64,000 nucleotides of DNA from Candidatus Woesebacteria bacterium (GTDB lineage Bacteria > Patescibacteriota > Microgenomatia > UBA1400 > UBA1396): the NCBI GenBank assembly GCA_963749595.1, contig CAVVNJ010000009.1:65380-129379 (forward strand). The letters run 5' to 3'. Below, piece by piece: positions 3,222-54,094 of this stretch (positions are counted from its first letter, which is position 1; every line of letters starts with the position of its first letter). The notes beneath the pieces are model-generated. The model saw nothing but the letters and a program-made list of their open reading frames with translations, had not been told where the DNA came from and did not search any database. A program made the translations under genes and the position numbers.

Positions 3222-3258
3222 CAAACAATATAAATTAATCTGTTACCATACTCCTTAT

Positions 3259-4842
3259 ATGGCCTGGTACCGAAAATATCGTCCCCAGCGGATCGCTGAT
3301 TTGCAGATTGTGCCCGTGCGCGAGCAACTTTTGCAGACCTTGGCCAACGGCAAAATTTCCCATGCTTACCTGTTTGCCGGACCCAAGGGCACTGGCAAGA
3401 CCTCGACTGCCCGCATTTTGGCCCGTGTTTTGAATGATCCAGCCAATGAAAAGGTGGTGCTCGGTAAAAAGGGCAAATTATCCGAGCCTGATCCGGATAG
3501 CCGGTTGTTGCAGAAAATCGCCGAGGGTCATTCGGAGGTGGTTCTGGAGCTGGACGCTGCCAGTCACCGCGGGATCGATGATGTCCGGCGCCTGCAGGAA
3601 ATGGTCTCGGTGGTGCCGACTGAGGGCTTGATTAGAGTGGTGATTCTCGATGAAGTTCACATGTTAACTAATGAAGCCTTCAATGCCCTGCTGAAGTTGC
3701 TGGAAGAACCGCCGGAACGGGTGGTTTTTATTTTGGCGACTACCGAGTTACAAAAGGTTCCCGCCACGATTCAGTCGCGTTGTGAACTGATTCCTTTCCG
3801 CCGAGCGAATAGTGAGGAAATCGGGGCGGCTTTGCAGATGGTTGCCAATGCTGAAAAGATTGATTTATCCAAGGAAATATCCCTGAGAATTGCCGAGGCG
3901 GCACAAGGTAGTTTTCGCGACGCGGTGAAGTATCTGGAGCAAGTCGCGCGCGGCGGGGCGATGGACGAAAAATTATTAGATTTGTTAACGATTGGGCAGC
4001 AGCAGATCGAACCGTTGCTGCGCGCCCTCGCCGCGCGCGATCCCAAAGAAGTCGCAAAATTGTTTCAGGAGTCCAGGCAAAAGGGTGAAAACTTTGTCGC
4101 TTTGGAGCAAGCTTTAGTTTTGGCGGTGCAGGAGCGACTACATCGGGCGATTCAGCGGGGCGAAAAGTCAACGCGCATCTTGATCGAGTTGTTATCTCAT
4201 CTGGCCCACAATCTTGGCGGTCCCGAACCAATCGATGGAATCAAGCTTGAGGTCGCCTGTCTAACTTGGTGTTTGACGGGGTTGAGGATTGATTCCTCCC
4301 CGACGTTACCCCAAGAGGAATCAATCCGGAATGATTCCTCTCGAGAAAAAGTAAGCAAGGAATCAATCCTATGCGCGTGGGAGGTGCCGAGTACGGCCAT
4401 CACCCTTGAGGAAGCCAAACAACAAGCTAAGCAAGAAAAGGCACAAGCGCCGGTGGCCGCCGTAGACTTGAGGTCGGTTGAAGAATCTGAACTAGTTTCG
4501 AGTGAGCTTGTCATTGATCGAGTTCAGCAAGCTTGGCCGCAATTATTACTCGCGGCCCGGACGAAGAGTCAGGCGCTGGAATCAATTATCAAACAGGGAC
4601 GGATTAGTGGTGTCAAGGGCGCTACCATCCAGCTTGAATTCGAACTCGGTTTTCACAAAGAACAACTGGAGACTAAAAGATACCACGCCGTTTTTCTGGA
4701 GTTATTGGCCGAGAGTTTTGGCCGCGGCGTAACTTTTGCGGCGACGGTTCTGCCTCCAGCGGTGGTGTCGGTCATTAATTCCGATCAGAGTCAGGACTCG
4801 CTGGTTCAAGCTGTCGAGGCGGCCGTTTTATCTCTCGGGTAA
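3259..4842 (+). CDS. dnaX: DNA polymerase III subunit gamma/tau
   Basis: MAWYRKYRPQRIADL start, Walker A GPKGTGKTSTARILA, and the LDEVHMLT and SRC (TIQSRC) motifs. I prefer the ATG at 3259 over the upstream TTG at 3214. Confidence 0.9.
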   Translation: MAWYRKYRPQRIADLQIVPVREQLLQTLANGKISHAYLFAGPKGTGKTSTARILARVLNDPANEKVVLGKKGKLSEPDPDSRLLQKIAEGHSEVVLELDAASHRGIDDVRRLQEMVSVVPTEGLIRVVILDEVHMLTNEAFNALLKLLEEPPERVVFILATTELQKVPATIQSRCELIPFRRANSEEIGAALQMVANAEKIDLSKEISLRIAEAAQGSFRDAVKYLEQVARGGAMDEKLLDLLTIGQQQIEPLLRALAARDPKEVAKLFQESRQKGENFVALEQALVLAVQERLHRAIQRGEKSTRILIELLSHLAHNLGGPEPIDGIKLEVACLTWCLTGLRIDSSPTLPQEESIRNDSSREKVSKESILCAWEVPSTAITLEEAKQQAKQEKAQAPVAAVDLRSVEESELVSSELVIDRVQQAWPQLLLAARTKSQALESIIKQGRISGVKGATIQLEFELGFHKEQLETKRYHAVFLELLAESFGRGVTFAATVLPPAVVSVINSDQSQDSLVQAVEAAVLSLG

Positions 4843-4886: not shown

Positions 4887-5168
4887 ATGAACAACCCCCT
4901 CAAAGCGCTCGGCGACTTAAATCAACTTCGTTCCCAGGCGATGGCGATGCAGAAAGCCTTGGCCCAGCAGCAAATCGTGATCGAAGAAGGCGATGTAAAG
5001 GTCGTGATTACCGGTGATCAACGGATCGTGGAGTTTAGCGTTCAGGGCGTCACTTCCGACGTGGCTGTCACCGCGCTCAACAAAGCCATTAAGAAATCCC
5101 AAGAGATGGCGGCGGCCAAGCTGCAGGAAATGACCGGCGGATTGGGCGGCATGCTGGGCGGACGATAA
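4887..5168 (+). CDS. ybaB: YbaB/EbfC family nucleoid-associated protein
   Basis: 93 aa in the conserved dnaX-ybaB-recR context. VVITGDQRIVEFSV is a typical YbaB core. Confidence 0.85.
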   Translation: MNNPLKALGDLNQLRSQAMAMQKALAQQQIVIEEGDVKVVITGDQRIVEFSVQGVTSDVAVTALNKAIKKSQEMAAAKLQEMTGGLGGMLGGR

Positions 5169-5179
5169 GCTACAAGGAA

Positions 5180-5217
5180 GCGGGGATTTTCCTCTTCGAG
5201 GAAAATCCCCTTTAACG
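5180..5217. repeat. hairpin/palindrome element, copy A (family shared with the recA upstream region)
   Basis: GCGGGGATTTTCCTC-TTC-GAGGAAAATCCCCTTTAACG forms a perfect 13-bp stem with a 3-nt loop. It ends 2 nt before the recR ATG. Two related copies lie at 53388-53467. Confidence 0.7.
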
Positions 5218-5218
5218 T

Positions 5219-5824
5219 ATGAAACTTCCCCGGTCCGTGCGCGCGGTGACGGAGCATTTTGAGCGTCTACCTGGTATTGGACCCAAGACGGCGCAACGGT
5301 TGGCGCTGTATCTGCTGCACGTGCCCGATCACGTTTTAGCCGAGTTCGCCAACTCCTTGACCAGCCTCAAACCGAACACTCGTTTTTGTGCCCAATGCCA
5401 CTTGATTGGCGAAGCGGAGACTTGCGCGATCTGTGCCGATGACAGCCGGGAAAAGTCGACCATCTGCGTGGTGGAGCAGCCGCTGGACGCGATCGCCCTG
5501 GAACAGGCAGGCAAGTACCACGCCCTTTATCACGTGTTGCATGGGGTGATTTCGCCGTTGGATAACATTGGTCCCGATCAATTGTACTTGCGTGATCTGC
5601 TGACTCGTTTAGACGGTGTAGACGAGGTAATTTTGGCCACCAACGCCACGATGGAGGGCGAGGCCACGGCGCTTTATCTTGAACGGTTGCTGCGCGACTC
5701 CGGTTATGACTCGCAGCGGCTGAAAGTCACACGCATAGGCCACGGTCTGCCGATCGGGGCGAACATTGAGTTTGCAGATGGAATTACCCTCGCTCGGGCA
5801 CTCGAAGGTCGGCGGGTGATGTAG
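5219..5824 (+). CDS. recR: recombination protein RecR
   Basis: LPGIGPKTAQRLALYLL helix-hairpin-helix, a C4 zinc motif (CAQC...CAIC) and a Toprim region. Confidence 0.95.
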   Translation: MKLPRSVRAVTEHFERLPGIGPKTAQRLALYLLHVPDHVLAEFANSLTSLKPNTRFCAQCHLIGEAETCAICADDSREKSTICVVEQPLDAIALEQAGKYHALYHVLHGVISPLDNIGPDQLYLRDLLTRLDGVDEVILATNATMEGEATALYLERLLRDSGYDSQRLKVTRIGHGLPIGANIEFADGITLARALEGRRVM

Positions 5825-11299: not shown

Positions 11300-12353
11300 T
11301 TACCTTGACCCTACTTGCCCGATCAGTCCATAAATCGGGGCAATAATTGACAGCATCATGCCGCCCACGGCCGCGCCAACAAACACCAGCATGATTGGTT
11401 CCAGCAGAACCGTGATGGCTTTGAGTGAGTTGTCGACTTCATATTCCATGAAATCCGCGATGTCGGCCATCGATTTTTCCAAAGTGCCGGTCTTATCGCC
11501 GACCTCGATTAATTTAACAATAATGTTGGGAATAAGTTTCCTTTCTTGCCGCAGTCCTTCCGCCAACTTTTTTCCGGAAGAAACGGACTCATGCAAATTG
11601 TGAATCACGCGGGCGATGTCTTTGCGCAAAACTACGTGTTCGGCCAGCAGTAGTGCGTCAGGCAGCGGTAGTCCCGAACCAAGCAATAAATGCATACTAT
11701 GGGCAAAACGGGCCAGATCAATTTTTCGCACTAAATCCGAAATTAACGGCAGTGACATCAGCGGCGTGAGCAATAGGCCGCGGTTGCGTCGGTAAATCAC
11801 GATCATGACGGTCACGATTAAACCAACCACGGCGATGACCGGCACCGTTTGCTTAAGCAACAAGTTTGAAGCGACAATCAGAATTCTGGTGGGCAGCGGA
11901 AGGGTGATGGTTAAGCGGGAGAAAACGGTCGCGATGCGGGGAATCACCACGACTAGAATCATGAGTAAAACGAGTATAAAGATAACCAGAATCAGCACCG
12001 GGTAAGCCAGAGCGGCTTTAATCTTGTCCGAAAACTCGGCTTCCTTTTTAGTGCTGGTTTTTAGGTCCTGCAAAATTTGGGCCAACGTGCCTGCCTTCTT
12101 CGGCGGCCCGCACCAAGCTCACGGTGACCTCATTAAAAACACGGGGAAATTTTGCCAGCGTGGTGTTGACCCGCTTACCCTCACTCAGGTCCGCCTGCAA
12201 AGTGGAGAGGACTTTTTTAACGTTACCTTTGGCATCGGTTTCCAGGGAATTTACCGCTTCTAAAATGGGAATGCCGGCGCTTAGCATCGTCTCAAGATTG
12301 CTGATGAAGCCGATTTTTTCGTTCGTGGATAGATAAAGTCGATTTCCGTTCAT
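11300..12353 (-). pseudogene. pilC: type IV pilus platform protein PilC (GspF family), with one apparent frameshift near 12090-12100
   Basis: ORF 12048-12353 (…FPRVFNEVTVSLVRAAEE) and ORF 11300-12085 (…AQILQDLKTSTKKEAEFSDKIKAALAYP…) join into a normal T2SSF protein. This requires removing one G from GAAGAAGGCAGG. Confidence 0.85.
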
Positions 12354-15698: not shown

Positions 15699-18600
15699 TT
15701 AATTGACTTGGGCCGAGTTTGAAGCCGTCGGGGATGGTTCCGGTGTTATTTCCGGAGATGGAGTCGGAAGAGGACTTGGTATTGGAGTGACCGGTACTGC
15801 GGTCGGTTCGGGAGTTGGCGTTGATGCTGGCTCGACAGTTGGAACTGGAGAGGGCTGGCTGGTTGGTTCGATCACCGGGGTTGGTTCCGCGGGATGGTCG
15901 ATTTTGGTTACCGTGGCCGGAGTGGTTGAGTTGGCCACCGACAAAGCCATCCAAGAGAAATTCAGGTCAAAACTGCTCGGCCGGGAAAGTCTGATCTTGA
16001 AACCCTTGGTAGTCAGATCAGCGATCGCGTAGGCTGGCACCTCGTCCGGTTTGGTTGTGCCAACCAAGTTGACGTTGGCGGTGACCACTGGGTGGCTAGC
16101 GTATTCTTTTTCGAAACGAACCTCGACCTCGCTGGCACCACTGGGCAGAAAGGCGAAACCGGCGGTGTCTTTATTAAAGGTTGGGCGGCCCAGGAAGGCG
16201 ACGTCACCGTGGAAGACAACTTGGTCAAAGAATTCACTGACCCGGCGGAAGAGTCCATTTAAGAGGTCGGCCAGGAGAGTCGGAGATCCACCGGCAGTTT
16301 CGGAAGAGGCGACTTGAGCTGAGTTAGAGGCTAGACCGTCAACTTTTTCGGTGAGACTGGATAAGTTATTAGCGAGGATCGACCAACCCTGAATTTGATT
16401 GGCTTCGATTTTGTCAGCCTTCAGAGTGCCGGCGAAGAAGGCGTTGCCCAGAGAATCAACGCGGACATTTTCCAGTCCGTTTTCGCCCAACAGTTCTAGA
16501 GTTCCAGTCAGGCGGGCGTCCTGGGCGGTGATTCGAGGGGCAATTACCTCTATGCCGGCGGCTACGCGATCAGCCAGAACATTCGAGAAGTCGGCTGGTT
16601 CACCGGTCGCGAGAGGTTGACTGAGCAACTGCGTTAGGACTTGACGGCCATAGTCGGTTTCATTCTCGGTCAGTCCTGGTAATAGGTTAGATAACGTTCC
16701 GGTAGCAGCCCCGTTTTTCACAAAAGCCAATACCGCGCCGGTTCCCTCACCGTTGAAATCGGTCAGCGCCGTCCCAATCACTGCGCCGGCTTTCGTCGCT
16801 TTCATGGCCACTCCCGCCAGGCTCGAAGTCGTGAGGTAATCGCCCGCCTTAATTGGCCCATTCTCGGATGAGACCTTGACCGGTACGCGGCCGGACATGG
16901 CTATCGGTACGGCTTTAACGCCCTCGTTGGTGACATTACCCATCACTAAACCTGGCCAGGTGGAAACAATTCCCAGAACTCCCGGGTCGTAGGCAATGGC
17001 GCTCTTTTGGGCACCGGTTTCCAAGTTAGAATCTAAGGAAACTACGTCGCCGGCGGATAAGGTTGAGTCATTGGTGGTATAAAACTCTGCGAGGTCAGAA
17101 CCATTATCGATGACCGTGGCGAACATGCCGAAAATGCGGACGTCGGTGTCTCCGGTGGCGGTGGAGGCACAGAAAGAATAATTTTGCGCTGCTGTGCCAG
17201 CATCCGCTTCCAGAGCAACCAACTCAAAGTCGCCAACTATAACGCCATTAGCTACTGTGATAGCGATGGTGTTAGTCGCTAGGACCGAACCGGTACAAGT
17301 GGCGTTATCTTCAATTTTGATGACCAGAGATTGGTCAGTGTTGTTACTGCTGACTAATTCGACTTTACCGCGTACATAAACGTCGCCGGTGGCCGTTGAG
17401 GGAGTAACCGAAACCGACGCCAAAGTAACTTCTCCAGCCGCAACATTATCGAGGGCATCACTCGTGTCATAGCTGGCGGCGGATTGGACATCAGCCAGCG
17501 TGGTCACACAGTTGACCCAGGCTCCGTTCTCATAGCAGCGATATTTATTAGTGCTGGTGTTGTAGTACATGCCGCCGTTAACACCGGTGGGGTCGGCCGT
17601 GCCGTTATCGAGGACTAGGAGATCGGGTGTGGCGGTGGCGCTATTGCCGATCTGCACTTTGCCGCTAGAGGAAGTCGGTCCGACTGTAAAGTTGACGTTG
17701 CCGGTGCCGGAGTTAATATTGACTGCGGTCGCCCCGGTAATGTTGCCGATGGTCAAGGTCTTGGCATTGGCGCCGGTTCCTAGATTAACCGCACCGGTAG
17801 TGCCGGAGTCAAGGGTGAGGGCATTAGTCGTATTTGAGGTGACGGAACCGGCGCCGGCAAAACTGAAGGCCGTGGCGGAAACACCAATTGTGTCGAGTGA
17901 GGCCACCCCGGTTAACGCCCCACCAGTCGTAACGTTAAGACCGCCACTGGAAGTCAGGGCAAAGGTTCCGGTAGCATTACCGACCGCCGTGTTACCGGTT
18001 CCGGCAGTGTTGAAGTTGATGGTCGGAGCGGTAATAGCCGCCGTTCCGGAGGATAGGGTTTGAGTCAGGCCGGTTAATCCGGTCGAGTTGATCGCTCCGG
18101 AGGTCGAGGTCAGGCTGAGGGTACCGGACGCTAAAGTTAGGCCGGTGGCCCCCGTTATGGCGCCGGCGCCGGTAATGTCGATCGAGCCGGAATTAAGGAT
18201 GTTGCCCAGCGTGCCAGTGATCAGGATGCCGTCGGTGATGGTTCCTGCTGTTTCGGCAATCTGTAAGCCGCTAGTCATCGTACCCGCACCGGTTTGTTCA
18301 ATTAGCAGACCATTGGTTAAAGTGCCAGAGGCGATCGAATTAAAGATTCTTTGGGCGGATGTTCCAGCAGTATCCTGGTTTTCCAGGGTCAGGGAAGTCG
18401 GGGTGGCGACCTCGCCCAGGGTGAAAGCGATATTGCGGGCGGTAGTCGTTAAAATGGTGTTGCCGTTGTCATATGCGACCTGCAGGGTGGCAGTGCCACC
18501 GCCGGCTTGATCAGCGGCACAACCCCAGGTGTCGGTAGTCTCGTTCCACTTGAGAATTTGGGTATCGGAGCAGCCTTGTAACAGGGTTAGACCAGAGGAC

Positions 18601-21600
18601 AAAACCTCTAGACCTGAGCCAGAAGAGGTGGTGCTGGAAAGAGCGTCGGCCGAGGCGGCCACGTTGACGGTGAGGGCGCCTGAGGAGATGGTTAGACCGT
18701 TACCGGTCAAGTCGGTGAAGTTTTCGGAGTTAACCGATAAAGTCCCGGCTGTGATCGTGCCGGTAGTGCTGATGGTATCAGTGCCGACATTGATTGACCC
18801 AAAGTTGGCAGTAATCGATCCTGAGTCTAAAGCGCCCGTCCCGGTGATAGCGGTGGTGACCGCGTCGTTGGTGTCAACCAAGGCCGCGTCCTTGCCGTCC
18901 AGCCGGTTGAGTTCGGCGCCGCTGATTAAAGTGCCGGCATTATCGAACAAAGCGGTGAAGCCGCCGCCGGCGTCAGTGAATTTGATTGCGGCGCCGAGGG
19001 GTAAGTTAGTATCCGCATTGGCGATCACTAAGCCGGAGTCCAGACCATTGGTGTTGGCCGAATCAGCCTGGGTAATGGTCAAGCCGGAAGTTGTGCCGGC
19101 CGTGCCGCTGGGCGTTCCGGTGATGGAAACCACGTTGACCGTACCGACCAGGTCGGAACTGAGGCCCAAGTTTTCCGTTCCGGCAAAGGTATAGGTGTGG
19201 GAATTGGTCCAAGCGAAGGCCGTATCCTGATTCACGCTCAGGGTCAGACCGGCGGTCTCGCTGCCGCCGTCGGCACCGGAGATTCCCGTGCCGTTAGTGA
19301 TGGAGGCGACGTAGTTGCCGGCGGTGTCGGTACCCAGAGTCAGATCGCTGATTTCGGTCGGGCCAATGCAGTTGGTGCAGCTTAAGTCGTTGGCGGTCAG
19401 TGACGTGCCTAGTCCAGTCGAGTCGATACTCCAGGTGCCGTTGCCGATATTTTGGCCGGCTGCAATGGAAATTCCTCCGGTGTCAGTGGTGAGCGAGTCG
19501 ACGGTTGTGGCGTCTTGGATATCTACCGTTCCAGCGCCGTTGGCGACAATAACCAGTGATTCGTTGGTCCCGGTAGTGATGTCGGTGGCTAACCCAGATA
19601 AGGTCAGTGTGCCGCCGTCGATCGTCAGACCAGCGATGGTTGAGGAGGCATTAACATCAATCGCCGTCGTAAAAGTAGTGGCCGCAGTATTGAAGGTCCA
19701 ACCACCGGTGACTGTCTCAGCCTCATTTAGTAAACCAACCTGATTGCCGATGCGAACCCGGGCAGTGCTGCTACCTTGATCGGACACGATAAACTCATCG
19801 GTCGAGGTCGCCGCCGGCCCAAACTCGATGGTCGAAGCGGGTGAGACCGAAGGAGAGGTATCCGATTCGCGAACAGTTAGTGAACCGCCGGTGGTGTCAG
19901 CCGCACAACCCCAGGTATCGGTGGTCTCGTTCCATTTTAGGATTTGGCTGTCGGAGCAACCTTGGAGGAGGGCTAATCCGGAGGACAAAACCTCCAGGCC
20001 AGATCCGGAGGAAGTCGTGGCTGATAGGGCGTCAGCGGAGGCGGCAACGTTGACGGTGAGCGCTCCTGAAGAGATTGTTAGCCCGTTGCCGGTCAAGTCA
20101 GTAAAGTTTTCCGCGTTAACCGACAAGGTTCCAGCGGTAACGGTGCCGGTGGTGGAGATGGAATCGGTGCCGACATTGATCGAGCCAAAATTAGTGGTGA
20201 TCGAGCCAGAGTCTAAAGCGCCCGTCCCGGTGATAGCGGTGGTAACCGCGTCGTTGGTGTCAACCAGAGACGCATCCTTACCATCCAAACGGTTGAGTTC
20301 GGTACCGCTAATCAGAGTGCCGGCGTTGTTGATGATTGTGGTGAAACCACCACCGGCGTCGGTGATGTTTAGAGCCGCCCCGATTGGCAAATCGGTATCC
20401 GCATTGGCAATGACCAAACCAGAATCGAGTCCATTGGTGTTGGCCGAATCGGCCTGGGTGATGGTTAGTCCTGAGGTAGCGCCAGCTGTTCCACTCGGCG
20501 TTCCAGTGATGGCGACGACGTTAACGGTACCAGCTAAGTTAGACGTAATACCCAAATTTTCCGTCCCAGCAAAGGTATAGGTGTGGGCGTTAGTCCAAGC
20601 AAAGGCCGAATCCTGATTCACGCTCAGGGTCAGACCGGCGGTCTCGCTGCCACCGTCGCCACCGGAAATTCCGGTGCCATTGGTGACCGAGGCGACGTAG
20701 TTGCCAGTCGTGTCGGTACCCAGAGTCAAATCGGCTATCTCAGTGGAACCGATACAGTTGGTGCAGCTTAAGTCGTTAGCCGTTAAGGAAGTACCTAGAC
20801 CGGCCGAGTTGATACTCCAGGTGCCGTTGCCAATACCCTGTCCGGCGGCGATGGTTATTCCGCCGGTGTCGGTAGTGAGCGAGTCGACCGTGGTGGCGTC
20901 TTGGATATCAATTGTTCCTGAACCATTCGCGACGATGACTAGCGATTCGTTGGTCCCGGTAGTAATGTCGGTGGTTAGCCCGGACAAAGTTAGGGTGCCG
21001 CCGTCAACAGTCAGCCCCGCTATGGTTGAAGTTGTGTTGACGTCGATGGCTGTAGTAAAGGTCGTGGCCGCGGTGTTGAATGTCCACCCACCAGTTACCG
21101 TTTCCGCTTCATTTAGTAGTCCGACTTGGTTGCCGATCCGAACCCGCGAAGTGCTCCCGCCCTGATCGGAAACAATAAACTCATCAGTTGAGGTCGCCGC
21201 CGGCCCAAACTCGATGGTCGAAGCGGGTGAGACCGAAGGAGAGGTATCCGACTCCCGAACAGTCAGCGAGCCGCCGGTTGTATCAGCCGAACAATCCCAA
21301 GTGTCGGTCGTTTCGTTCCACTTAAGGACCTGAGCGTCGGAACAACCTTGGAGCAAGGTCAGTCCGGAAGCCAAAACTTCCAAGCCAGAACCGGAAGAAG
21401 TTGTCGCCGACAGGGCATTCGTGGCGGCGGTCAAGTCGATGGTGACATCATCGGCGTTAACGGTAATGCCGTTGCCCGCGCCAATGTTCAAAGTTGTCGA
21501 ACCACCCAGAGAAACCGAGCCGCCGTTAATCAAGCCTGAACCAGCGGTGATGGTTAAAGAAGAATTTGCCAGCTCGCTATTGTCTATTTCCCCAGCTGGC

Positions 21601-23162
21601 AACGAAACCGTACCTGAGGATACAGCCAGACCAGTGATGTTTTCCAAAGCGCCGCCACTAGTTAGCCGACTGGTCCCGCCAGTTGATAGCCCGCCATTTA
21701 GAGCTGCCGATGTGGTGAAAATGGTACCTAAAGTATTAAAGGTCCAGCCACCAGTTACCGTTTCCGCTTCATTTAGTAGTCCGACTTGGTTGCCGATGCG
21801 AACCCGACCCGTTCCGCCGCCCTGGTCGGAAACAATAAACTCGTTGGTGGAGGATGCGGCCGGACCAAACTCGATGGTTGAGGCGGGAGAGACGGAGGGG
21901 GAAGTATCCGACTCCCGAACGGTCAGTGAACCACCTGATGTGTCGCTGGCGCAGGCCCAGCCCCCGGCGTCGGTCCACTTCAATAGTTCGTTGTCGGCAC
22001 AGCCTTTTAGTAGGGCCAGACCAGAGGCCGAAACTTCCAATCCGGAGTTGCTGGAAGTCGAGCCGGTTGTGCCGCTGGTCGTTAAATTAACATCTAGGGA
22101 AACGGTTCCAGTTGTGCCGCCACCACTCAAGCCGCTGCCAGCCGTGACGCCTTCGATGTCGCCCGTTCCTCCAGATCCCGCTGATCCCGTAGCCCCAGTA
22201 GCCCCAGTGGCGCCCGCCGAGCCAGTATCACCTTTATCGCCTTTTGCCCCGGCTGGTCCAGCCGGACCGGAAGGTCCAGTTGGCCCCGGTGGACCGATTC
22301 CGGAAACGGCGGCGACGGCTGCTCCCGCCTGAGGAGTAACTACCAAGGCGCCATTAGTCGCATCCCGCTGAACGTTGACAAAGGAACCAACATTACCCGC
22401 CGGCAAACTCAATCCGGATAGCACCGGAGCCTGAGCGTAAGCTTTTTTCACCAGCCAGGATTCTTGGTCGATGATCGCTTCAATCATCCCCAGAATGCTT
22501 CGTTCCGGCTCGCCTGTCTCCTCAGCAAATAGTTGTAGAGTTTCGCGAAAAATCAATTCTTCCGCCGGATCGACGACTTTCAGGCTATCCTGTAGCTGTA
22601 GGCCCGACAACTCACCGCGCGCGTCAAACGTGCCGGTAATTTCTTTTTTATCTTTTAATGAGAAGAGGGTGAAATCCCCAACCAGCCGGCCGCGACTGAT
22701 CCGGCCGCGTAAAACTTTAACCGGCAGGACAGAACCGTCCGGCAAAACAACCCGGGAAACAGTGCGGGCAAAAACTGCCACCGGTCCCACCTCCTCCCGC
22801 TTGGAATGGAAAGAATCAATCGTTGTCGCGCCATCACTCACTATGCCGTGTTCGCCGTCGCCAAAGCTTAGTTCGGCATTACCCACAAAAGTGTCGTTTT
22901 CAACGACCGCATTTTCAACTTGAGCATAATAAAAAGTACCACTGCCCTTTTGAACCAGCAGTAAGAATGGTCCGGCAAATTGACTCTTTTCCAACGCTTT
23001 ACGGTCGATTGATTGAATTACCCCTGCCTGACGAACTTGGGGCCGAATTCTCGGAATCAACCAGCCGGAGATATTCAGGGCTCCACCAACCAGGACCAAT
23101 AATAAGAGGATTCCAATGGCGGCCGAGAGTCGGAATGAGCTGTTGGCGGAAGGGCGGGTCAT
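15699..23162 (-). CDS. giant (2487 aa) membrane-anchored fibrous surface protein with collagen-like triplets, 462-aa tandem repeats, paired-Cys motifs and a Pro/Thr-rich tail
   Basis: One uninterrupted ORF. It has an N-terminal signal-anchor (AAIGILLLLVLVGGAL), 15 G-X-Y triplets and a repeated LEV.SGL.LLQGC.D.Q.LKWNETTDTW.C motif. It also has Gly/Thr/Ser-rich beta-helix-like sequence and C-terminal globular domains. There is no LPXTG motif. Confidence 0.85.
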   Translation of the reverse strand: MTRPSANSSFRLSAAIGILLLLVLVGGALNISGWLIPRIRPQVRQAGVIQSIDRKALEKSQFAGPFLLLVQKGSGTFYYAQVENAVVENDTFVGNAELSFGDGEHGIVSDGATTIDSFHSKREEVGPVAVFARTVSRVVLPDGSVLPVKVLRGRISRGRLVGDFTLFSLKDKKEITGTFDARGELSGLQLQDSLKVVDPAEELIFRETLQLFAEETGEPERSILGMIEAIIDQESWLVKKAYAQAPVLSGLSLPAGNVGSFVNVQRDATNGALVVTPQAGAAVAAVSGIGPPGPTGPSGPAGPAGAKGDKGDTGSAGATGATGATGSAGSGGTGDIEGVTAGSGLSGGGTTGTVSLDVNLTTSGTTGSTSSNSGLEVSASGLALLKGCADNELLKWTDAGGWACASDTSGGSLTVRESDTSPSVSPASTIEFGPAASSTNEFIVSDQGGGTGRVRIGNQVGLLNEAETVTGGWTFNTLGTIFTTSAALNGGLSTGGTSRLTSGGALENITGLAVSSGTVSLPAGEIDNSELANSSLTITAGSGLINGGSVSLGGSTTLNIGAGNGITVNADDVTIDLTAATNALSATTSSGSGLEVLASGLTLLQGCSDAQVLKWNETTDTWDCSADTTGGSLTVRESDTSPSVSPASTIEFGPAATSTDEFIVSDQGGSTSRVRIGNQVGLLNEAETVTGGWTFNTAATTFTTAIDVNTTSTIAGLTVDGGTLTLSGLTTDITTGTNESLVIVANGSGTIDIQDATTVDSLTTDTGGITIAAGQGIGNGTWSINSAGLGTSLTANDLSCTNCIGSTEIADLTLGTDTTGNYVASVTNGTGISGGDGGSETAGLTLSVNQDSAFAWTNAHTYTFAGTENLGITSNLAGTVNVVAITGTPSGTAGATSGLTITQADSANTNGLDSGLVIANADTDLPIGAALNITDAGGGFTTIINNAGTLISGTELNRLDGKDASLVDTNDAVTTAITGTGALDSGSITTNFGSINVGTDSISTTGTVTAGTLSVNAENFTDLTGNGLTISSGALTVNVAASADALSATTSSGSGLEVLSSGLALLQGCSDSQILKWNETTDTWGCAADTTGGSLTVRESDTSPSVSPASTIEFGPAATSTDEFIVSDQGSSTARVRIGNQVGLLNEAETVTGGWTFNTAATTFTTAIDVNASSTIAGLTIDGGTLTLSGLATDITTGTNESLVIVANGAGTVDIQDATTVDSLTTDTGGISIAAGQNIGNGTWSIDSTGLGTSLTANDLSCTNCIGPTEISDLTLGTDTAGNYVASITNGTGISGADGGSETAGLTLSVNQDTAFAWTNSHTYTFAGTENLGLSSDLVGTVNVVSITGTPSGTAGTTSGLTITQADSANTNGLDSGLVIANADTNLPLGAAIKFTDAGGGFTALFDNAGTLISGAELNRLDGKDAALVDTNDAVTTAITGTGALDSGSITANFGSINVGTDTISTTGTITAGTLSVNSENFTDLTGNGLTISSGALTVNVAASADALSSTTSSGSGLEVLSSGLTLLQGCSDTQILKWNETTDTWGCAADQAGGGTATLQVAYDNGNTILTTTARNIAFTLGEVATPTSLTLENQDTAGTSAQRIFNSIASGTLTNGLLIEQTGAGTMTSGLQIAETAGTITDGILITGTLGNILNSGSIDITGAGAITGATGLTLASGTLSLTSTSGAINSTGLTGLTQTLSSGTAAITAPTINFNTAGTGNTAVGNATGTFALTSSGGLNVTTGGALTGVASLDTIGVSATAFSFAGAGSVTSNTTNALTLDSGTTGAVNLGTGANAKTLTIGNITGATAVNINSGTGNVNFTVGPTSSSGKVQIGNSATATPDLLVLDNGTADPTGVNGGMYYNTSTNKYRCYENGAWVNCVTTLADVQSAASYDTSDALDNVAAGEVTLASVSVTPSTATGDVYVRGKVELVSSNNTDQSLVIKIEDNATCTGSVLATNTIAITVANGVIVGDFELVALEADAGTAAQNYSFCASTATGDTDVRIFGMFATVIDNGSDLAEFYTTNDSTLSAGDVVSLDSNLETGAQKSAIAYDPGVLGIVSTWPGLVMGNVTNEGVKAVPIAMSGRVPVKVSSENGPIKAGDYLTTSSLAGVAMKATKAGAVIGTALTDFNGEGTGAVLAFVKNGAATGTLSNLLPGLTENETDYGRQVLTQLLSQPLATGEPADFSNVLADRVAAGIEVIAPRITAQDARLTGTLELLGENGLENVRVDSLGNAFFAGTLKADKIEANQIQGWSILANNLSSLTEKVDGLASNSAQVASSETAGGSPTLLADLLNGLFRRVSEFFDQVVFHGDVAFLGRPTFNKDTAGFAFLPSGASEVEVRFEKEYASHPVVTANVNLVGTTKPDEVPAYAIADLTTKGFKIRLSRPSSFDLNFSWMALSVANSTTPATVTKIDHPAEPTPVIEPTSQPSPVPTVEPASTPTPEPTAVPVTPIPSPLPTPSPEITPEPSPTASNSAQVN
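18520..22045 (-). repeat. tandem 1386-bp (462-aa) repeats inside the giant ORF: two full units plus partial units at both ends
   Basis: Landmark TCCGGA(G/A)G(A/C)CAAAAC(C/T)TCC recurs at about 18591, 19977 and 21363, a period of exactly 1386. A 62-nt perfectly identical block is at 19804-19865 and 21190-21251. A 660-nt-offset partial copy lies at 21752-21940. Confidence 0.85.
22161..22295 (-). repeat. collagen-like G-X-Y x15 segment inside the giant ORF
   Basis: GPPGPTGPSGPAGPAGAKGDKGDTGSAGATGATGATGSAGSGGTG read directly from the minus strand. Confidence 0.85.
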
Positions 23163-27308: not shown

Positions 27309-28554
27309 ATGAAAATCTACAACACTCTAACACAATCGATCGAACCCATTCGCAAGCTAGCGAACGAGGACCAGATCGGGGTGTACGCTTGTGGTCCTAC
27401 CGTCTACGATTACGCGCACATCGGTCACGCGCGCAAGTATACGCTGGACGACGTCTTGATTCGGACTTTGCGGTTGGCTGGTTTTCCGGTGAAACACGTG
27501 ATGAATATCACTGATGTCGGCCAACTGACCTCGGACGCCGATACCGGGGAAGACAAGATGGAAAAAGGCGCCCGTAAATTCGGCAAAACTGTCTGGGAGG
27601 TGGCCGAGTTCTTTGAGGAAGATTTTTGGCGCAAAGCTGATCTGTTGGGTTAAGCACCCCGAGATTGTTGTCGAAAGCCACCGATCACCTCGTGAGCAGA
27701 TCGCGATGGTGAAGAAACTGGAGGACAAGGGCTTCACTTACGAAATTCCTGGTGACGGCATCTATTTTGATACCAGTAAAGACCCGCATTACGGCGAGCT
27801 GGCCCGATTGAAGCTCGATCAACAACTCGAGGGCGCCCGGATCGGCATTACGGAGGGCAAGCGTAATCCCAGCGATTTTGCGTTGTGGAAGTTTTATCCG
27901 GTTGGCGAAAAACATGGAGATGGAATGGGATTCACCGTGGGGCAAAGGTTTTCCCGGTTGGCATATCGAGTGTTCAGCGATGAGTATCAAGTATCTGGGC
28001 GAACAGTTTGCGATCCACACCGGTGGCATTGACCATATTCCGGTTCACCACACTAACGAAATCGCCCAAGCCGAAAACTCTACCGGCAAGCGGCCCTTTG
28101 TCCGTCACTGGGTGCATCATAATTTTTTGCGGGTAGATGGGAAAAAAATGAGCAAGTCGCTCAATAACTTCTATACCCTGGACGACGTGATTGCCAAGGG
28201 ATTTTCGCCGCTGGCGCTAAAACTTTTATTTTTGCAGGCGCACTACCGCGATGAGCTGAATTTTACCTGGAATTCTTTGGCGGGCACCCAAAAGGCCTAC
28301 GAAAAACTGCAACGGCAGGTGGGAAAACTTTTGTCGGCAGCCAGTTACGAAGATCTATCTGAGATACCGGAGCCGGAAGCCGTTAATTTGTCGATGAGCT
28401 TAAGCAGCGGTTGGACGAATTTGTTGGTTATCTGGAAGAAGATCTTAAAACGGCGCAAGCCCTGGCGGTGCTATGGAAGACGGTCAAAGGCTCATCAGTG
28501 GAGGCGCTGCCGGTGATCAAGCGGATGTTCGAATATTTCGGCCTAGCAATCTGA
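27309..28554 (+). pseudogene. cysS: cysteine--tRNA ligase, with multiple apparent frameshifts
   Basis: HIGH motif (YDYAHIGHARKY), [13 protein letters not shown] and KMSKS are all present but spread over frames 0, 1, 2 and 1. Shifts occur near 27645 (G-run), 27918 (A5 run) and 28388 (T-run). A compensating pair near 27675-27700 hides KATDHLV. Confidence 0.88.
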
Positions 28555-33916: not shown

Positions 33917-36849
33917 TTACGGGGCAAATTCGAGCTCTTTAACCAGGTAAGCGCCGGTCTCGGAGTTTGGATTGGCGGCAATTTGTTGGGGCGTACCCGC
34001 GGCTACAACCCGTCCGCCATCTTCGCCGCCACCTGGACCCAAATCGATGATCCAGTCGGCATTCTTGATGACATCCAGGTTGTGCTCGATCAGGATAATC
34101 GAGTTACCCTGCCGGATTAATTTATCCAGCACGTCCAGCAACTTCTTGACGTCCTCAAAGTGTAGTCCGGTCGTCGGCTCGTCCAGTAAATAAAGGGTAT
34201 GTACCAATGTGTTGGTCGTCAATTCTTTGGCCAATTTGACCCGCTGTGCCTCGCCGCCGGAGAGGGTTGGCGCCGGTTGGCCGAGCTTGATGTAGCCCAA
34301 CCCAACGTCGAGCAAAGTTTGTAGCCGCTGCTGAAGTTTTTTGTAGTGCGAGAAGAATGCCGCCGCTTCTTCGATAGTCATATCCAGGACGTCGGAGATC
34401 GTTTTGTCATGGTAGCGGACTTCGAGAGTCTCGCGGTTATAGCGCGTACCATGACAGACCTCGCAGGCCACGTAGACGTCCGGCAAAAATTGCATTTCGA
34501 TTTTAACCTGGCCCTCGCCCTGACAAGCTTCACAGCGGCCGCCCTTGACGTTGAAGCTAAAGCGTCCTGGTTTGTAGCCGCGCTCCTTGGCGTCGTGCGT
34601 TTCGGCGAAAACTTCACGAACTAGATCAAAGACCTTGGTGTAGGTGGCGGGATTGGAGCGCGGCGTCCGGCCGATCGGGCTTTGGTCAATCAACGCCAGA
34701 CGCTTCAGTTCTTCATGGCCGTGAATGGCTTCCACCGGACCCGGAGTTTCGGAAGAAACCCGATCCAGCAGTAAAAGTAAGTTTTGGTAGAGCGTGTCGT
34801 GGAGCAAAGTCGACTTTCCGGAACCAGAGAGGCCGGTGAGACAGACTAATTGATGCAGCGGAAATTCGACGGTTAGGTTTTTCAAGTTGTGCGCGGTGGC
34901 GCCATGGACCACCAACGATTTGCCGCGTCGGCCCAGCGGTTGCGGCCGCGACTCCAGCCAAATGTCTTTTTTGCGGTTTAAATATTGGCCGGTGATGGAA
35001 TGTTTGTCTTTCATTATTTCGGCCGAAGTGCCTTGCGCGACCACCTCCCCGCCGCGCACGCCTGCCCCCGGTCCAAAGTCGATCAGCCGGTCACTGGCCA
35101 GCATCACGTCGCGGTCATGTTCAACGACCACGACCGTATTGCCAAGATCGCGCAGCCGTTGCAGGGTGGTGATTAAACGATGGTTGTCTTTTTGGTGCAA
35201 GCCGATCGTTGGTTCATCAAGAACGTAGAGGACGCCGGAGAGGCCGGTGCCAATTTGGGAAGCCAGACGGATCCGCTGGGCCTCGCCGCCGGCCAGGGTA
35301 TTGGCCTCGCGCGCGAGCGTCAGATAGGTTAGTCCAACCGAAACGAGGAAATTCAAACGGGCAATAATTTCTTTGGCAATCGGCTCAATAATCTGACGCT
35401 CGCGCGCCGTCAACACCGATTTGGTCAACATATCCTGAATCCAAGCCAAAGACTCGCCGATGCTCAACTCGGTGACGTCGGCAATTGACAAACCATCGAC
35501 CGTAACCGCCAAACTTTCCGGTTTCAATCGGCGGCCACGACAATCAGAGCAGGGATTCTTCTGCATGAATCGTTCTATTTCCTGACGGATATAATCGGAA
35601 GTGGACTCGCGGTAGCGACGCTCCAAGTTAGGAATGAAGCCCTCAAATGTTTCGCGGATTAAAGTGGATTCGCCGAAACGATTCTCGCCACGGACGGTAT
35701 AAACCGTGTCGCTGCCATAGAGTAATTCTTGCTGTAGTTCGGGGGAAAGTCTTTTCCAAGACGAGCGCCAATCCTCCCCGTATTCCGTAACCACGGTCCG
35801 CACGATGCGGGCAAACCAAGTATCGCTTTCCAGCAAACGGGCAAAAGGAATGATCGCTCCTTCCGGCAGGGTCAGGGTCGGGGCGATTAGCTTTTTCATT
35901 TCAATGGAGAGGATTGTCCCCAAACCGCTGCAGCGGGGACAGGCACCATGCGGAGTGTTAAACGAAAACATTCGGGGTTCGAGCTCCGGAACCGGTTGGC
36001 CGGTGCTGGGATAAACGCGCTTCTCGGTAAATTCCCTAGTTTCCAATTGGCGGGGCTTTTCCGGGAAATCCAGGCCCGGATCCAACACGTAGGCCAGAGT
36101 TAACCCAACCGTCGGACAGCGTGAGGGCCTGTTCAATATCGGCGTTAAGGCGGGAGCGGAGCGCGCGCGACTTCTTCCGGATCGTTCAGTTGGACCTGGG
36201 CGACCACGACCCGATCAATCACTGCCTCGATCGTATGTTGGTTATTTTTGAATAAGGTGATGTCTTCGCGCAAATCATAGATGTCGCCATCAATGCGGGC
36301 TTGGGAATAACCTTTTTGGCGCAAGTTGGCAAATAACGATTGAAATTCGCCTTTACGTTCTTTGACCACGGGAGCCAGAATTAAAAAACGGACCGGACCG
36401 GCCGACGCGCGCCGGGCGAGCTCGCCAAGTAATTCGTCCAAAATCTGGTCCAGGGAAAACGGTAGTACTTCTTCGCCGGTGCTAGGATCATGCGGCCGCC
36501 CGGCGCGCGCAAACAGCAAACGCAGGTAATCGTAGACCTCGGTAATCGTCCCGACCGTGGAGCGCGGGTTGTGTGAGGTCGTCTTTTGGTCAATGGAAAT
36601 AGCCGGGGATAAACCAGTGATGCTTTCCACTTTCGGTTTCTGCATCACGCCTAAAAACTGCCGGGCATAAGCGGATAAGGATTCCACGTAGCGTCGCTGA
36701 CCCTCGGCGTAGAGGGTATCAAAGGCGAACGAACTTTTACCGGAACCGGATAGACCGGTTACAACAACCAGCGAATTTTTCGGCAAATCCAAGTCAACGT
36801 TCTTAAGGTTATGTTCTTGCGCGCCGCGCACGCGGATAAAATCGTCCAT
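33917..36849 (-). pseudogene. uvrA: excinuclease ABC subunit A, with two apparent frameshifts within about 55 nt
   Basis: The N-terminal ORF 36145-36849 contains GLSGSGKSS. The C-terminal ORF 33917-36136 contains zinc-finger cysteines, the second ABC module and LSGGEAQR twice. The linker [18 protein letters not shown] is only readable in the third frame (about 36090-36160). Confidence 0.9.
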
Positions 36850-36927
36850 GAAGCATCGTATTATACGGTTTAGTGACTAAAAAAACTAGTCACCTGCCGC
36901 AAGTCGCTGACACTGACCAGTCGTTCG

Positions 36928-42794: not shown

Positions 42795-42821
42795 ATAGCA
42801 CTCTTGCCAAAATAGTGCTAA
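42795..42821 (+). promoter_or_regulatory. CIRCE operator (HrcA binding site)
   Basis: ATAGCACTC-TTGCCAAAA-TAGTGCTAA closely matches the consensus TTAGCACTC-N9-GAGTGCTAA. It lies 20 nt upstream of hrcA. Confidence 0.85.
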
Positions 42822-49822: not shown

Positions 49823-51248
49823 ATGGCTTTACAGCCGCGACCGCCAGTTGTCACCATCATGGGACACGTTGACCACGGGAAGACGTCCTTGTTGGACTTC
49901 ATCCGTCAAACTCGGGTTGCGGCTGGTGAGGCGGGGGGCATTACCCAACATATCGGTGCCTATCAAGCCGAGTTTAATGGTCAGAAAATCACTTTCATTG
50001 ATACTCCCGGACATGCCGCTTTTTCGAAAATGCGTTCCCGCGGCGCGGCGATCACGGACATTGTAGTTTTGGTCGTCGCTGCCGATGACGGTGTGATGCC
50101 GCAAACCGTTGAGTCAATTCAACATATCAAAACCGCCGGCGTGCCTCTCATCGTGGCGATTAACAAAATCGACGTCCAGGGTGCCTCACCGGAAATGGTC
50201 AAAGCGCAATTGGCCGAAAAGGAAATTTACGTCAGTGGTTACGGCGGCGACGTCGAAGCGATTGAATTATCCGCCAAAACCGGCCAAGGCGTGGACAAGC
50301 TTTTGGAAACTTTAGTGGTCATGGGCGAAGTGCTTGAGCTCAAGGCTGATCCCGAGGGTGAGCTACAGGGCGTCGTGATTGAGTCCAGCAAGCATAAGTT
50401 CCGCGGACCGGTGGCCACGGTTCTCATCCAAAACGGTACTCTCCGGCCGCACGCCACAATTTTTGCCGATGATATCGCTTGTTCCGTACGGACAATGACC
50501 GATGCCGTCGGTCAGTTGATTGAGGCGGCCGGCCCTTCTTTGCCAGTAGAGGTTGCTGGTTTTGACAGCGTCCCGCCAGTGGGCGCTTCCATAACTCGTC
50601 AGGAACATTCCGTTGTCGCCGTCGCTAAAGCCGCGCCGTTGATGATTCCCTCAATTGAAGAGGCGTCTAAACTTCGCTTAATTATCAAAGCCGATTTTGT
50701 TGGTACTTTAGAAGCGATTCGCCAGAATTTGGTGTCTGACAACCTGGAAATTATCGGTACCGGCATCGGTGACGTGAACGAATCGGACGTGATCTTGGCG
50801 GAGACGACAAAAGCGAGAATCGTTACTTTCCAGACTAAGGCTCCCGGTCCGATTAAAAAATTGGCTGAGAGGCTCGGGCGTAAAAATCAAGCAATACCAG
50901 ATCATTTACGATTTATTGGAAGACCTGCAAAAGCAGTTGTTACATCTTTTGGCGCCTGAGATTAATGAAAAAGAAACCGGGAAAGCGGAAATTATTCAGA
51001 TTTTTTCCATTCGCGGCGAGCAAATTTTGGGCTGCCGGGTGCAGACTGGTGTGTTGCGCAAAGGTGATTTGGTTCATCTCAAGCGCGCCGACCAGCTCCT
51101 GGCTGACGCTAAGGTGGTCTCACTCAAGCAGGGAAAAACTGACATCGACAGCGTTTCCGAGAACGTTGAATTTGGCCTCGTGCTGGATAAGCCAGCCACC
51201 GTGGTCGTGGGAGACGTTGTTTTGGCCTACCAAATAGTTGAAGATTAA
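49823..51248 (+). pseudogene. infB: translation initiation factor IF-2 (short form starting at the G domain), with an apparent frameshift near 50875
   Basis: PRPPVVTIMGHVDHGKTSLLD and DTPGH lie in ORF 49823-50959. The conserved C-terminus GVKIKQYQIIYDLLEDLQKQL...VLAYQIVED lies in ORF 50916-51248. One extra G in CTCGGGCG explains the shift. Confidence 0.9.
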
Positions 51249-52290: not shown

Positions 52291-53367
52291 TTAAGCGGTC
52301 TTGGTGGCGGCTTTAGCCTGTTTTGAGGCCTTGATGTGCTCCCAGACTTTGCGCTTAATTTCTTCCATGAGTTTGGGATCTTCTTCCAGCACCGCTTTGG
52401 CGTTATCGCGTCCTTGAGCCAGAGTTTGGCCGTTGTACTTGAAGAACGCGCCCGCTTTTTCCACGATATTCATTTCCGTGGCAACGTCCAGTACGCCGCC
52501 GGATTGGGAAATGCCGGAATCAACCATCATGTCGAATTCGGTGGTCCGGAAAGGTGGAGCCACTTTATTTTTGACGATCCGGGCGCGGTGGCGGGTGCCG
52601 ACGGTAGTGTCGCCTTCCTGAATGTTGCCGATCTTGCGCATGTCGATTCGCACCGAAGCGTAAAACTTCAGAGCTTGACCACCGGCAGTCACTTCCGGAT
52701 TGCCAAACATCACACCGATTTTCATGCGCAATTGGTTGGTGAAGATGATCACGGTTTGGGATTTACTGATGACGGCGGCCAGTTTGCGCATGGCCTTGGA
52801 CATCAGTCGGGCCTGGGTGCCGACCGAAACATCACTCATTTCACCCTCGATTTCCGACTTGGGGACCAGAGCCGCGACCGAGTCGACGACTAGAACATCG
52901 ATGCCCCCGGAACGGATCAGAGTTTCGGCAATTTCCAGGGCTTGTTCACCATAATCCGGCTGAGAAATCAGCAGTTCTTCTAATTTGACGCCGATGTTTT
53001 TGGCTCGCTCTGGGTCAAGCGCATGCTCGGCATCAATGAACGCCGCTACCCCGCCTAGTTTTTGGGCTTCGGCAATGACATGCAGACAGACGCTGGTTTT
53101 GCCGGAAGCTTCCGGACCGTAGATTTCAACTACTCGGCCACGCGGCAAACCGCCTACGCCCAAGGCCAGATCTAAGGGCAGACACTGCGTCGAGATCACC
53201 GGCATGGTGTACATCTCGTCCAGCTTGCTGCCTAGGCGCATCACCGAGCCTTCACCGTAATCCTTCTGGATTTGTTTTAGCGCGATCTCGATTGCCTCGC
53301 GCCGTTGCTGCTGTTGACTGTCGCCAGCCTTGGGGGCAACGACATTAGCGTCAGAATTTTTTGACAT
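52291..53367 (-). CDS. recA: recombinase RecA
   Basis: Walker [23 protein letters not shown] and [19 protein letters not shown]. An AAGGAG RBS lies 7 nt upstream. Confidence 0.98.
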
Positions 53368-53387
53368 ACCTACTCCTTACTTTTGTA

Positions 53388-53467
53388 GCGGGGATCATCC
53401 TCTTCGAGGAAGACCCCCTTACGGTTTTTAGGCGGGAATCAACCTCTCCCAGGAAGATCCCCTTACG
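53388..53467. repeat. two tandem copies (B and C) of the hairpin/palindrome element also found before recR
   Basis: GCGGGGATCATCCTCTTCGAGGAAGACCCCCTTACG (53388-53423) and GGCGGGAATCAACCTCTCCCAGGAAGATCCCCTTACG (53431-53467). They lie immediately upstream of the recA RBS. Confidence 0.65.
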
Positions 53468-53505
53468 CTTTCCATCCACTATGACAGGCAATTATTACTA
53501 AATTG

Positions 53506-53823: not shown

Positions 53824-54094
53824 CGTCGTTTTGTCTTTTTACGAAATGGGCGAATGATTCAAACATTTTCATGCCGGTCTTAAGGCCTGCCATCATGCCG
53901 CCCAAATTTTGTAGCGGGGTAAAGGTTTTGGTAATGACGTTATCAATGGTATCGGCGAGTTCATTAAAGCGTTTCAAAGAACGGCGGACTTCCTGCATGA
54001 CCAGAATAGCCTGGACGCCGACCACAATGAGAATCAGCGACAGGATAGCAGCGACGACGGTGAGGACGATGACGAGCGGATCCATATGATTCAT
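53810..54094 (-). CDS. DUF948-like membrane-anchored protein
   Basis: 94 aa with an N-terminal TM helix and a helical domain (VRRSLKRFNELADTIDNV). It is paired with a YtxH gene, as in Firmicutes. Confidence 0.5.
   Translation of the reverse strand: MNHMDPLVIVLTVVAAILSLILIVVGVQAILVMQEVRRSLKRFNELADTIDNVITKTFTPLQNLGGMMAGLKTGMKMFESFAHFVKRQNDDAQE

Follow-up and report, generated by a model that had tools for sequence, protein, structure and literature searches.

Hairpin elements upstream of recA and recR in a Woesebacteria-like CPR bacterium: probable members of a low-copy REP-like repeat family

Three homologous hairpin elements of about 45 nt, each built as a 13-bp stem with a 3-nt loop, are present in the 64-kb stretch of DNA analysed here (referred to as the window), one in the ybaB-recR spacer and two in tandem upstream of recA. 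They are probably copies of a low-copy, lineage-restricted, GTAG-tagged palindromic repeat of REP-like kind, carried by a Microgenomates/Woesebacteria-like CPR genus; the kind itself is already known, but this family appears not to have been described before. Four observations directly support this reading, namely the homology of the copies, their presence at some sites and absence from empty counterparts, the retention of pairing despite sequence turnover, and the location of the copies in likely transcription units. A unit would span about 41-48 nt, with a 5' tag TTTTGTAGC in the best copies, a 13-bp stem usually containing one internal mismatch, a 3-nt loop and a tail TT(YA)ACG. We infer that the family acquires copies by insertion or local duplication, and loses them again, in short transcribed spacers just upstream of ribosome-binding sites, and that every copy becomes part of an mRNA, where any effect would be that of a stable stem-loop, with the generic REP role in the stability or processing of the message or in the setting of translation initiation. 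On this reading the elements would not constitute a sequence-specific operator of a DNA-damage regulon, and their placement beside recA and recR in this genome would reflect tolerated insertion sites and chance.

Elements and other features of the window

The two occupied loci comprise the following features, given in window coordinates:

4887-5168, plus strand: ybaB, upstream partner in a dnaX-ybaB-recR operon; orthologues carry the Pfam domain YbaB_DNA_bd
5171-5218, plus strand: recR-site copy of the element in the ybaB-recR spacer; arms 5182-5194 and 5198-5210, loop TTC; flanks, in sense to recR, 5' CTACAAGGAAGC and 3' tail TTTAACG
5174-5180, plus strand: Shine-Dalgarno-like AAGGAAG, just 5' of the recR-site hairpin
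5219-5824, plus strand: recR, 201 aa, last gene of the dnaX-ybaB-recR operon
52291-53367, minus strand: recA, 358 aa, assigned by its ORF, RecA homologues and Pfam RecA_N/RecA_C
53373-53378, minus strand: recA Shine-Dalgarno AAGGAG, read from the sequence, separated by 5 nt from the ATG and by 9 nt from the proximal hairpin upstream of it
53379-53432, plus strand: recA-proximal copy (copy 1); arms 53390-53402 and 53406-53418
53433-53476, plus strand: recA-distal copy (copy 2), degenerate; arms 53434-53446 and 53450-53462
53478-53486, minus strand: putative extended -10 TGTCATAGT of the recA promoter, just past the ytxH stop codon
53506-53823, minus strand: YtxH-like gene, directly upstream of recA

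The sequences of the tandem hairpins that the first-pass annotation had placed near recA were confirmed, and TRF detected the pair as a tandem with a period of 44 nt and 2.1 copies (53380-53471), the distal copy being the head-to-tail partner of the proximal one. With recA on the minus strand, both copies lie upstream in the sense of the gene, as had been claimed; the exact distances to the recA ATG are 21-56 nt (proximal) and 65-100 nt (distal), in correction of the earlier values. At recR, the reported perfect 13-bp stem was found, and the copy ends 1 nt, not 2 nt, before the ATG at 5219. The asserted homology between the two loci is borne out by their common core: the pattern GGGGATNNNCCTCTTCGAGGNNNATCCCC, with up to 3 mismatches, matched only 5182-5210, 53390-53418 and 53434-53462 in the 64-kb window and had no match in 100 shuffles; none of the three copies is expected by chance. 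Scored with two covariance models (R1 and R2), the recR-site copy reached 64.3 and 56.9 bits, the recA-proximal copy 55.8 and 63.3 bits and the recA-distal copy 37.1 and 44.7 bits. Run with filters off, neither model yielded a fourth copy in the window, in agreement with the earlier statement that the 64 kb hold no others.

The element extends past the palindrome into conserved flanks, 5' (W)AGC and 3' TT(YA)ACG. The recA-proximal copy has the GTAG tag TTTTGTAGC and the tail TTACGGTTTT, that is, the flank form TTTTGTAGC...TTACGGTTTT. The tag is intact in three of the eight complete copies (recA copy 1 and the infA copies of relatives L046 and L060, described below) and is altered to TTAG in recA copy 2 and to GAAG in the four recR-site copies. 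The perfect stem and 3-nt loop of the recR copy have a predicted RNA folding energy of -22.3 kcal/mol (z = -4.8); Watson-Crick pairs make up 11 of 13 in recA copy 1 and 9 of 13 in copy 2. Folded as RNA in the transcribed sense, all hairpins are stable (-8.5 to -20.9 kcal/mol). The three copies have identical plus-strand orientation and hence face oppositely relative to recR (plus) and recA (minus), so that there is no single oriented RNA signal; the recA-proximal copy is antisense to recA, and the recA mRNA contains its reverse complement.

The element had no match in Rfam 15 at the gathering threshold, a tRNA being the sole match in the window, and permissive Rfam scans returned generic hairpin noise far under threshold. 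In k-mer counts over the 64 kb, none of the element's sub-words proved over-represented, and a DNA uptake sequence (DUS/USS) was ruled out on these grounds. A weak covariance-model match at 53905-53948 was also rejected: it rests on the 13-mer TTTTGTAGCGGGG in conserved coding sequence (TFTPLQNLGG) and was judged a coincidence. The 13-mer (53907-53919), located in a gene for a 94-aa membrane protein about 520 nt away, equals exactly the 5' flank and stem start of recA copy 1, probably by coincidence.

Pfam searches of 50 window ORFs identified uvrA, a type IV pilus cluster, hrcA-grpE-dnaK-dnaJ and a HigB/HigA-like pair; no RAYT, Y1_Tnp or other transposase domain was found in these ORFs. uvrA (33917-36849, minus strand) is split into two ORFs, as are cysS (27309-28516), pilC/T2SS-F (11300-12353) and infB (49823-51248); four split genes in 64 kb suggest assembly indel errors (or pseudogenes), a caveat for homopolymer lengths in the hairpins. 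Upstream of uvrA (36850-36927, minus strand), an inverted repeat GTGACTA-N7-TAGTCAC overlaps the -35 region of a good TATAAT promoter. Some 10 nt separate the end of this promoter from the uvrA ATG, which would make the transcript nearly leaderless; a one-mismatch LexA-like CGAACGACTGGTC is located just upstream (36915-36926). A Gp49/HigB-like toxin gene, an HTH_3 (HigA-like) antitoxin gene and a DUF6941 gene (2010-3221) are inserted between rpsI and dnaX; the matching gap has no called genes in L046 and one unrelated 234-aa ORF in L047. A 2487-aa ORF (15699-23162, minus strand) lies beside type IV pilus genes and a Cache-domain sensor/response-regulator pair.

Within dnaX (3214-4842, plus strand), the segment 4286-4370 contains four 13-nt arms in the order A-A'-A-A' (GGATTGATTCCTC / GAGGAATCAATCC / GGAATGATTCCTC / AGGAATCAATCCT), which can pair as two long-loop hairpins or as one central hairpin, in the variable linker just past DnaX domain III. 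The arms resemble the repeat stem (GGATT..TTCCTC), a GAAAAAG run lies in the second loop, and dnaX of the relatives has no such palindrome; the arms could be an intragenic REP-like insertion or a frameshift-type signal.

The recA leader and the ybaB-recR spacer in related genomes

The best matches to RecA and RecR of the window bear Microgenomates/Woesebacteria names. The relatives used for comparison are of genus-level divergence (79-89% protein identity) and not strains; 64 kb were read for the window genome and 2-41 kb per relative. For recA, five relative genomes or populations were compared (L039-41, L042-44, L045, L049), with RecA 79-85% identical. All five keep the gene order membrane protein - ytxH - recA - convergent gene - infB - nusA, recA being preceded in its own sense by the small membrane-protein gene and then the YtxH-like gene. 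The ytxH-recA spacer measures 138 nt in the window versus 54-60 nt in the relatives. The two 44-nt units account for the extra ~80 nt, and all of the relatives examined (5/5) lack the element ahead of recA. A promoter-like TGTnATA box and the Shine-Dalgarno sequence are retained around the insert, and the relatives have counterparts of the box (TGTCATAAT, TGTTATATA, TGTATAA) in the same place; a simple consensus promoter scan did not call it upstream of recA. Because the putative extended -10 lies upstream of both hairpins, they would belong to the 5' leader of recA, where together they appear to represent an insertion between the likely extended -10 and the Shine-Dalgarno sequence.

The first-pass annotation had envisaged a shared operator in an SOS-like regulon with a non-LexA box. 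Under this proposal a dimeric regulator would bind the 29-bp palindrome and co-repress recA and recR; in a variant of it, the regulon might have arisen recently in the lineage by co-option of a repeat. The palindromic core common to the three copies would suit such an operator, as would the location of the recA copies, which directly follow the putative -10, where repressors classically bind, and the absence of a canonical GAAC-N4-GTTC box upstream of recA; operators can also be long palindromes, as the CIRCE element at 42795-42821 of the window illustrates. Against it, the element is missing upstream of recA in all five relatives, 4 of the 13 symmetric positions are lost in recA copy 2, no candidate regulator adjoins either site, and within the 64-kb window the region upstream of uvrA is without a copy.

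The same spacers were considered as sites of intrinsic terminators or attenuators that would separate ytxH from recA and ybaB from recR, in line with the terminator-type alternative raised earlier. The hairpins are indeed stable, G+C-ended and placed between co-directional genes, and the recR hairpin drew a terminator-like call on the minus strand in the consensus scan; this call, however, is antisense to the operon. In the transcribed sense no U-tract follows the stem, the tails reading GCUACAAAAG, UUUAACG and UUCAACG, whereas canonical hairpins with a T-run do occur elsewhere in the relatives, e.g. downstream of recA at L042:11121-11157. The recA copies are, moreover, downstream of recA's own promoter-like box. 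Termination is the least credible of the explanations considered and is extremely unlikely.

For recR, six relatives were compared (L046, L047, L048, L050, L051, L052), with RecR 80-88% identical. The ybaB-recR spacer contains a hairpin in the window, L048, L050 and L052, where it measures 50-56 nt (50 nt in the window), and is hairpin-free and 4-15 nt long in L046, L047 and L051. Mapped on a neighbour-joining tree of RecR, this distribution is patchy and implies either one gain and two losses or two gains. In the four genomes with a hairpin, the flanks are conserved (5' CTAYAAGGAAGC, 3' TTYAACG), and the stems between them are essentially unrelated in sequence (GGGGATTTTCCTC, AAGAACGCTTCTT, GAGGACTGACCCT, GCGATCGCTTCTT). 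The conservation in relatives that had been suggested as a check on the regulon is therefore largely lacking at both genes: the element is absent at all five recA loci and, among the six recR loci, absent from three and present with unrelated stems in the other three.

The recR site weighs further against a shared operator. Stems that are unrelated between genomes with RecR 84-88% identical imply a turnover too fast for the co-evolution of a regulator with its operator. Because the ybaB-recR gap in relatives is 4-15 nt, the recR copy is intra-operon, where there would be no promoter to control; the consensus scan found no promoter-like site at this intercistronic copy.

All four genomes with a recR-site hairpin conserve the AAGGAAG motif on its 5' side, and the three without a hairpin all lack the motif. 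AAGGAAG lies 38-44 nt from the recR AUG with the stable hairpin in between, and in the hairpin-free genomes the stop-start distances of ybaB and recR are compatible with translational coupling. To judge from these sequences, AAGGAAG may be a Shine-Dalgarno sequence that the folded hairpin would draw near the AUG, which suggests a hairpin-bridged ribosome-binding site in place of translational coupling at recR. Such an arrangement would be one possible role among several if the hairpins were dedicated cis-acting RNA elements, kept for post-transcriptional control of their genes; the others are a leader stabiliser or a protein or RNase site for recA, and joint control of recA, recR and infA. In favour of RNA elements of this kind, AAGGAAG is conserved only where the hairpin exists, and the hairpin itself persists at the recR site of four genomes. 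Their inversion at recA and infA relative to recR, by which loop and flanks are presented differently, and their absence from sister genomes at every site, by which they are dispensable, argue against it. The covariation analysis described below also bears on this explanation.

Copies at translation genes and evolution of the stem

When the window elements were compared by short-word BLAST with the loci of the relatives, a copy was located in L046 (3486-3539), between adk and infA and antisense to infA, with flanks TTTTGTAGCGGGGAT...ATCCCCTTACGGTTTT. L060 has the orthologous copy upstream of infA (1300-1353) with the same flanks, and in both genomes the flanks are identical to those of recA copy 1. 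In L047 the corresponding flanks, highly conserved, enclose a clean 41-nt empty site. A second L060 copy follows directly after the rpsM stop codon and is cut by the contig end; the rpsM-rpsK spacer of L046 is 2 nt where L060 has this copy. In L049, L050 and L060, which derive from one sample, the recR-site and infA-site stems differ and recA is without a copy. Altogether, four distinct loci (ybaB-recR, recA leader, infA leader and rpsM-rpsK) are occupied in five genomes or populations, all of them between co-directional genes, and every copy is 1-25 nt from a Shine-Dalgarno sequence or start codon, a regularity that RNA elements would also explain. With models R1 and R2 and filters off, no further copies were found in about 75-115 kb of relatives, and about 84 kb from three more distant relatives contained none. 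In the relatives, infA seems to start at a conserved CTG (L046 ~3556, L047 ~3163, L060 ~1377), 5 nt past a strong AAAGGAG; gene callers placed its start at an internal ATG, giving a shortened product of 70-71 aa, or overlooked the gene (L047).

Several short Logan contigs break at or near copies: that of L060 ends inside one, and those of L048, L051 and L052 begin 50-90 nt from one. Assemblers typically break contigs at dispersed repeats, and these ends are a weak hint of more copies of the family than those seen. The low copy number, with 2 loci in 64 kb, speaks against the REP-like reading; classical REPs usually exceed 100 copies per genome.

The copies at translation genes are difficult to accommodate in a damage regulon. 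Copies with the same flanks as at recA precede infA, another follows rpsM, and uvrA in the window has none; the enrichment at repair genes that a regulon would entail is not seen across these loci. For the window alone the picture differs, since both occupied spacers (2/2 loci) precede recombination genes, at a nominal P of 3/1891 = 0.0016 for ~62 genes with 3 in repair or recombination; this counts in favour of an operator, and we attribute the nominal P of about 0.002 to chance and the post hoc choice of category. Taken with the relatives, a shared operator and the SOS-like regulon built on it are very improbable, and of the two alternatives to it that had been named at the outset, the evidence favours the REP-like repeat over the terminator.

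A further explanation confines regulation to this genome, where a REP-like hairpin would have been copied to recA and recR and co-opted as a common cis-element coupling both genes; it may then function as an operator in duplex DNA or as an RNA hairpin to which one protein binds. The stem sequence common to the three window copies is missing from the orthologous recR hairpins of the relatives. We give this explanation little weight and regard it as quite unlikely; if true, a CPR bacterium would possess a repeat-seeded 'SOS-like' module of very recent origin.

An alignment of nine copies was used to assess covariation. Across these, 85% of cells are paired, 10 of the 13 stem pairs have changes on both sides, and the covariation score was reached by none of 500 shuffles. 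Sliding the 3' arm by 1-3 columns lowers the pairing to 42-55%; the stem position formed by columns 19-33 is unpaired in 6 of the 9 copies. What persists is the pairing, not the sequence. G-U pairs exceed A-C pairs by 7 to 4 in the transcribed sense, a difference that is not significant. The strong covariation and the direction of the wobble asymmetry would both be in keeping with dedicated RNA elements; on the other side, the asymmetry falls short of significance, Rfam contains no match, and the upkeep of a palindrome can be mutational and not selected, as the pairing could be preserved by palindrome-correcting replication errors (template switching) instead of selection. Considering both sides, we hold dedicated RNA elements to be fairly unlikely and keep the REP-like repeat as the preferred explanation.

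Relation to known systems and meaning

GTAG-tagged REPs have stems of 6-13 bp, loops of 2-3 nt and a terminal GTAG, form sub-families with complementary stem changes and G-T pairs, and are found between unidirectional ORFs, with occasional head-to-tail dimers; REP-like insertions inside replication and repair genes have also been reported (Di Nocera et al. 2013; PMC3733652). RAYT-associated REPs have been treated by Nunvar et al. 2010 (PMC2817692). The elements described here resemble GTAG-tagged REPs as 20-40-nt palindromes with a terminal GTAG in the best copies, a stem of at most 13 bp with an internal mismatch (GTAG-24 type) and a 3-nt loop, as species- or genus-specific repeats with different variants in related genomes, and in their complementary stem variants, G-T pairs, unidirectional spacers and head-to-tail dimers. 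Unlike these, they have been seen in few copies (64 kb and partial relatives), their tag is mostly degenerate, and no RAYT was seen in the 50 window ORFs. They also differ from REPs in lying near the downstream ribosome-binding site instead of the 3' end of the upstream ORF, and in their host, a CPR (Patescibacteria) lineage. A full-text literature search for repetitive extragenic palindromes and Patescibacteria found nothing relevant.

With LexA/SOS boxes the elements share a palindromic motif near recA and, for the recA copies, the adjacency to a promoter-like box. Such operators, however, are sequence-conserved in relatives and enriched at repair genes, and the present element is neither; 13-bp arms only 3 nt apart give it the look of a hairpin and not of typical half-sites. 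The canonical Gram-positive-type LexA box GAAC-N4-GTTC, considered as a candidate, was rejected, as 27 were found against 31 expected (not enriched) with none at recA. Besides the LexA/SOS box, the RDRM/DdrO motif of Deinococcus is a known damage-response operator. An SOS network of Patescibacteria is attributed to Sanchez-Osuna et al. 2017 (cited in PMC8565304).

CIRCE, the HrcA target, is likewise an inverted repeat of nearly 30 bp in a 5' leader, and serves as both operator and mRNA hairpin; its sequence is conserved across phyla, whereas the present element keeps only its pairing. The window itself contains a canonical CIRCE-like repeat (ATAGCACTC-N9-TAGTGCTAA) upstream of hrcA-grpE-dnaK-dnaJ, from which HrcA-type heat-shock control appears to be intact in this CPR genome. 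Directly next to the CIRCE element upstream of its hrcA, L039 has a 49-bp perfect palindrome of three GGGTCWGACCC units (20158-20206, between hrcA and a GH39 gene), which the window lacks at the corresponding position and which may be another repeat family of the clade or an operator array. It has the 12-mer AGGGGTCAGACC in common with the recR-site hairpin of L050, a suggestive match, although about one of this kind is expected by chance in the sequence searched.

MITEs and Correia elements are comparable in their presence or absence with clean empty sites, co-transcribed location in leaders, and A-rich junctions that may be short target duplications. They differ in measuring 100-300 nt against ~45 nt here and in having terminal inverted repeats around a core instead of a single hairpin; no transposase was found for the present element in the 50 window ORFs. 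Hairpin-bridged ('split') ribosome-binding sites are known from phage T4 genes 38 and 25. The recR site would be akin to these, with AAGGAAG 38-44 nt from the AUG at a distance that the hairpin would close, but the recA and infA copies have a normal Shine-Dalgarno sequence downstream of the hairpin.

Searches of wider collections yielded chance matches only. In a collection of genome contigs, the loose core pattern had 38 matches, all singletons in unrelated G+C-rich genomes with other loops and flanks; in metagenomes, the core pattern had none and a flank-anchored pattern had 5 non-palindromic ones, and a viral scan returned 2.

For annotation, the analysis removes a false lead: the hairpins should not serve as a damage-response motif in CPR genomes. 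They point instead to an apparent REP-like family in a Patescibacteria lineage with small genomes, a setting in which dispersed repeats are considered rare. Its empty sites are clean, units have been duplicated in tandem, and compensatory changes in the stem are unusually clear; the copies also show a consistent preference for positions a few nucleotides upstream of ribosome-binding sites. Should full genomes show the family to be dispersed, whether or not a RAYT accompanies it, it would offer a compact system for the spread of palindromes and their effects on translation initiation in tight operons.
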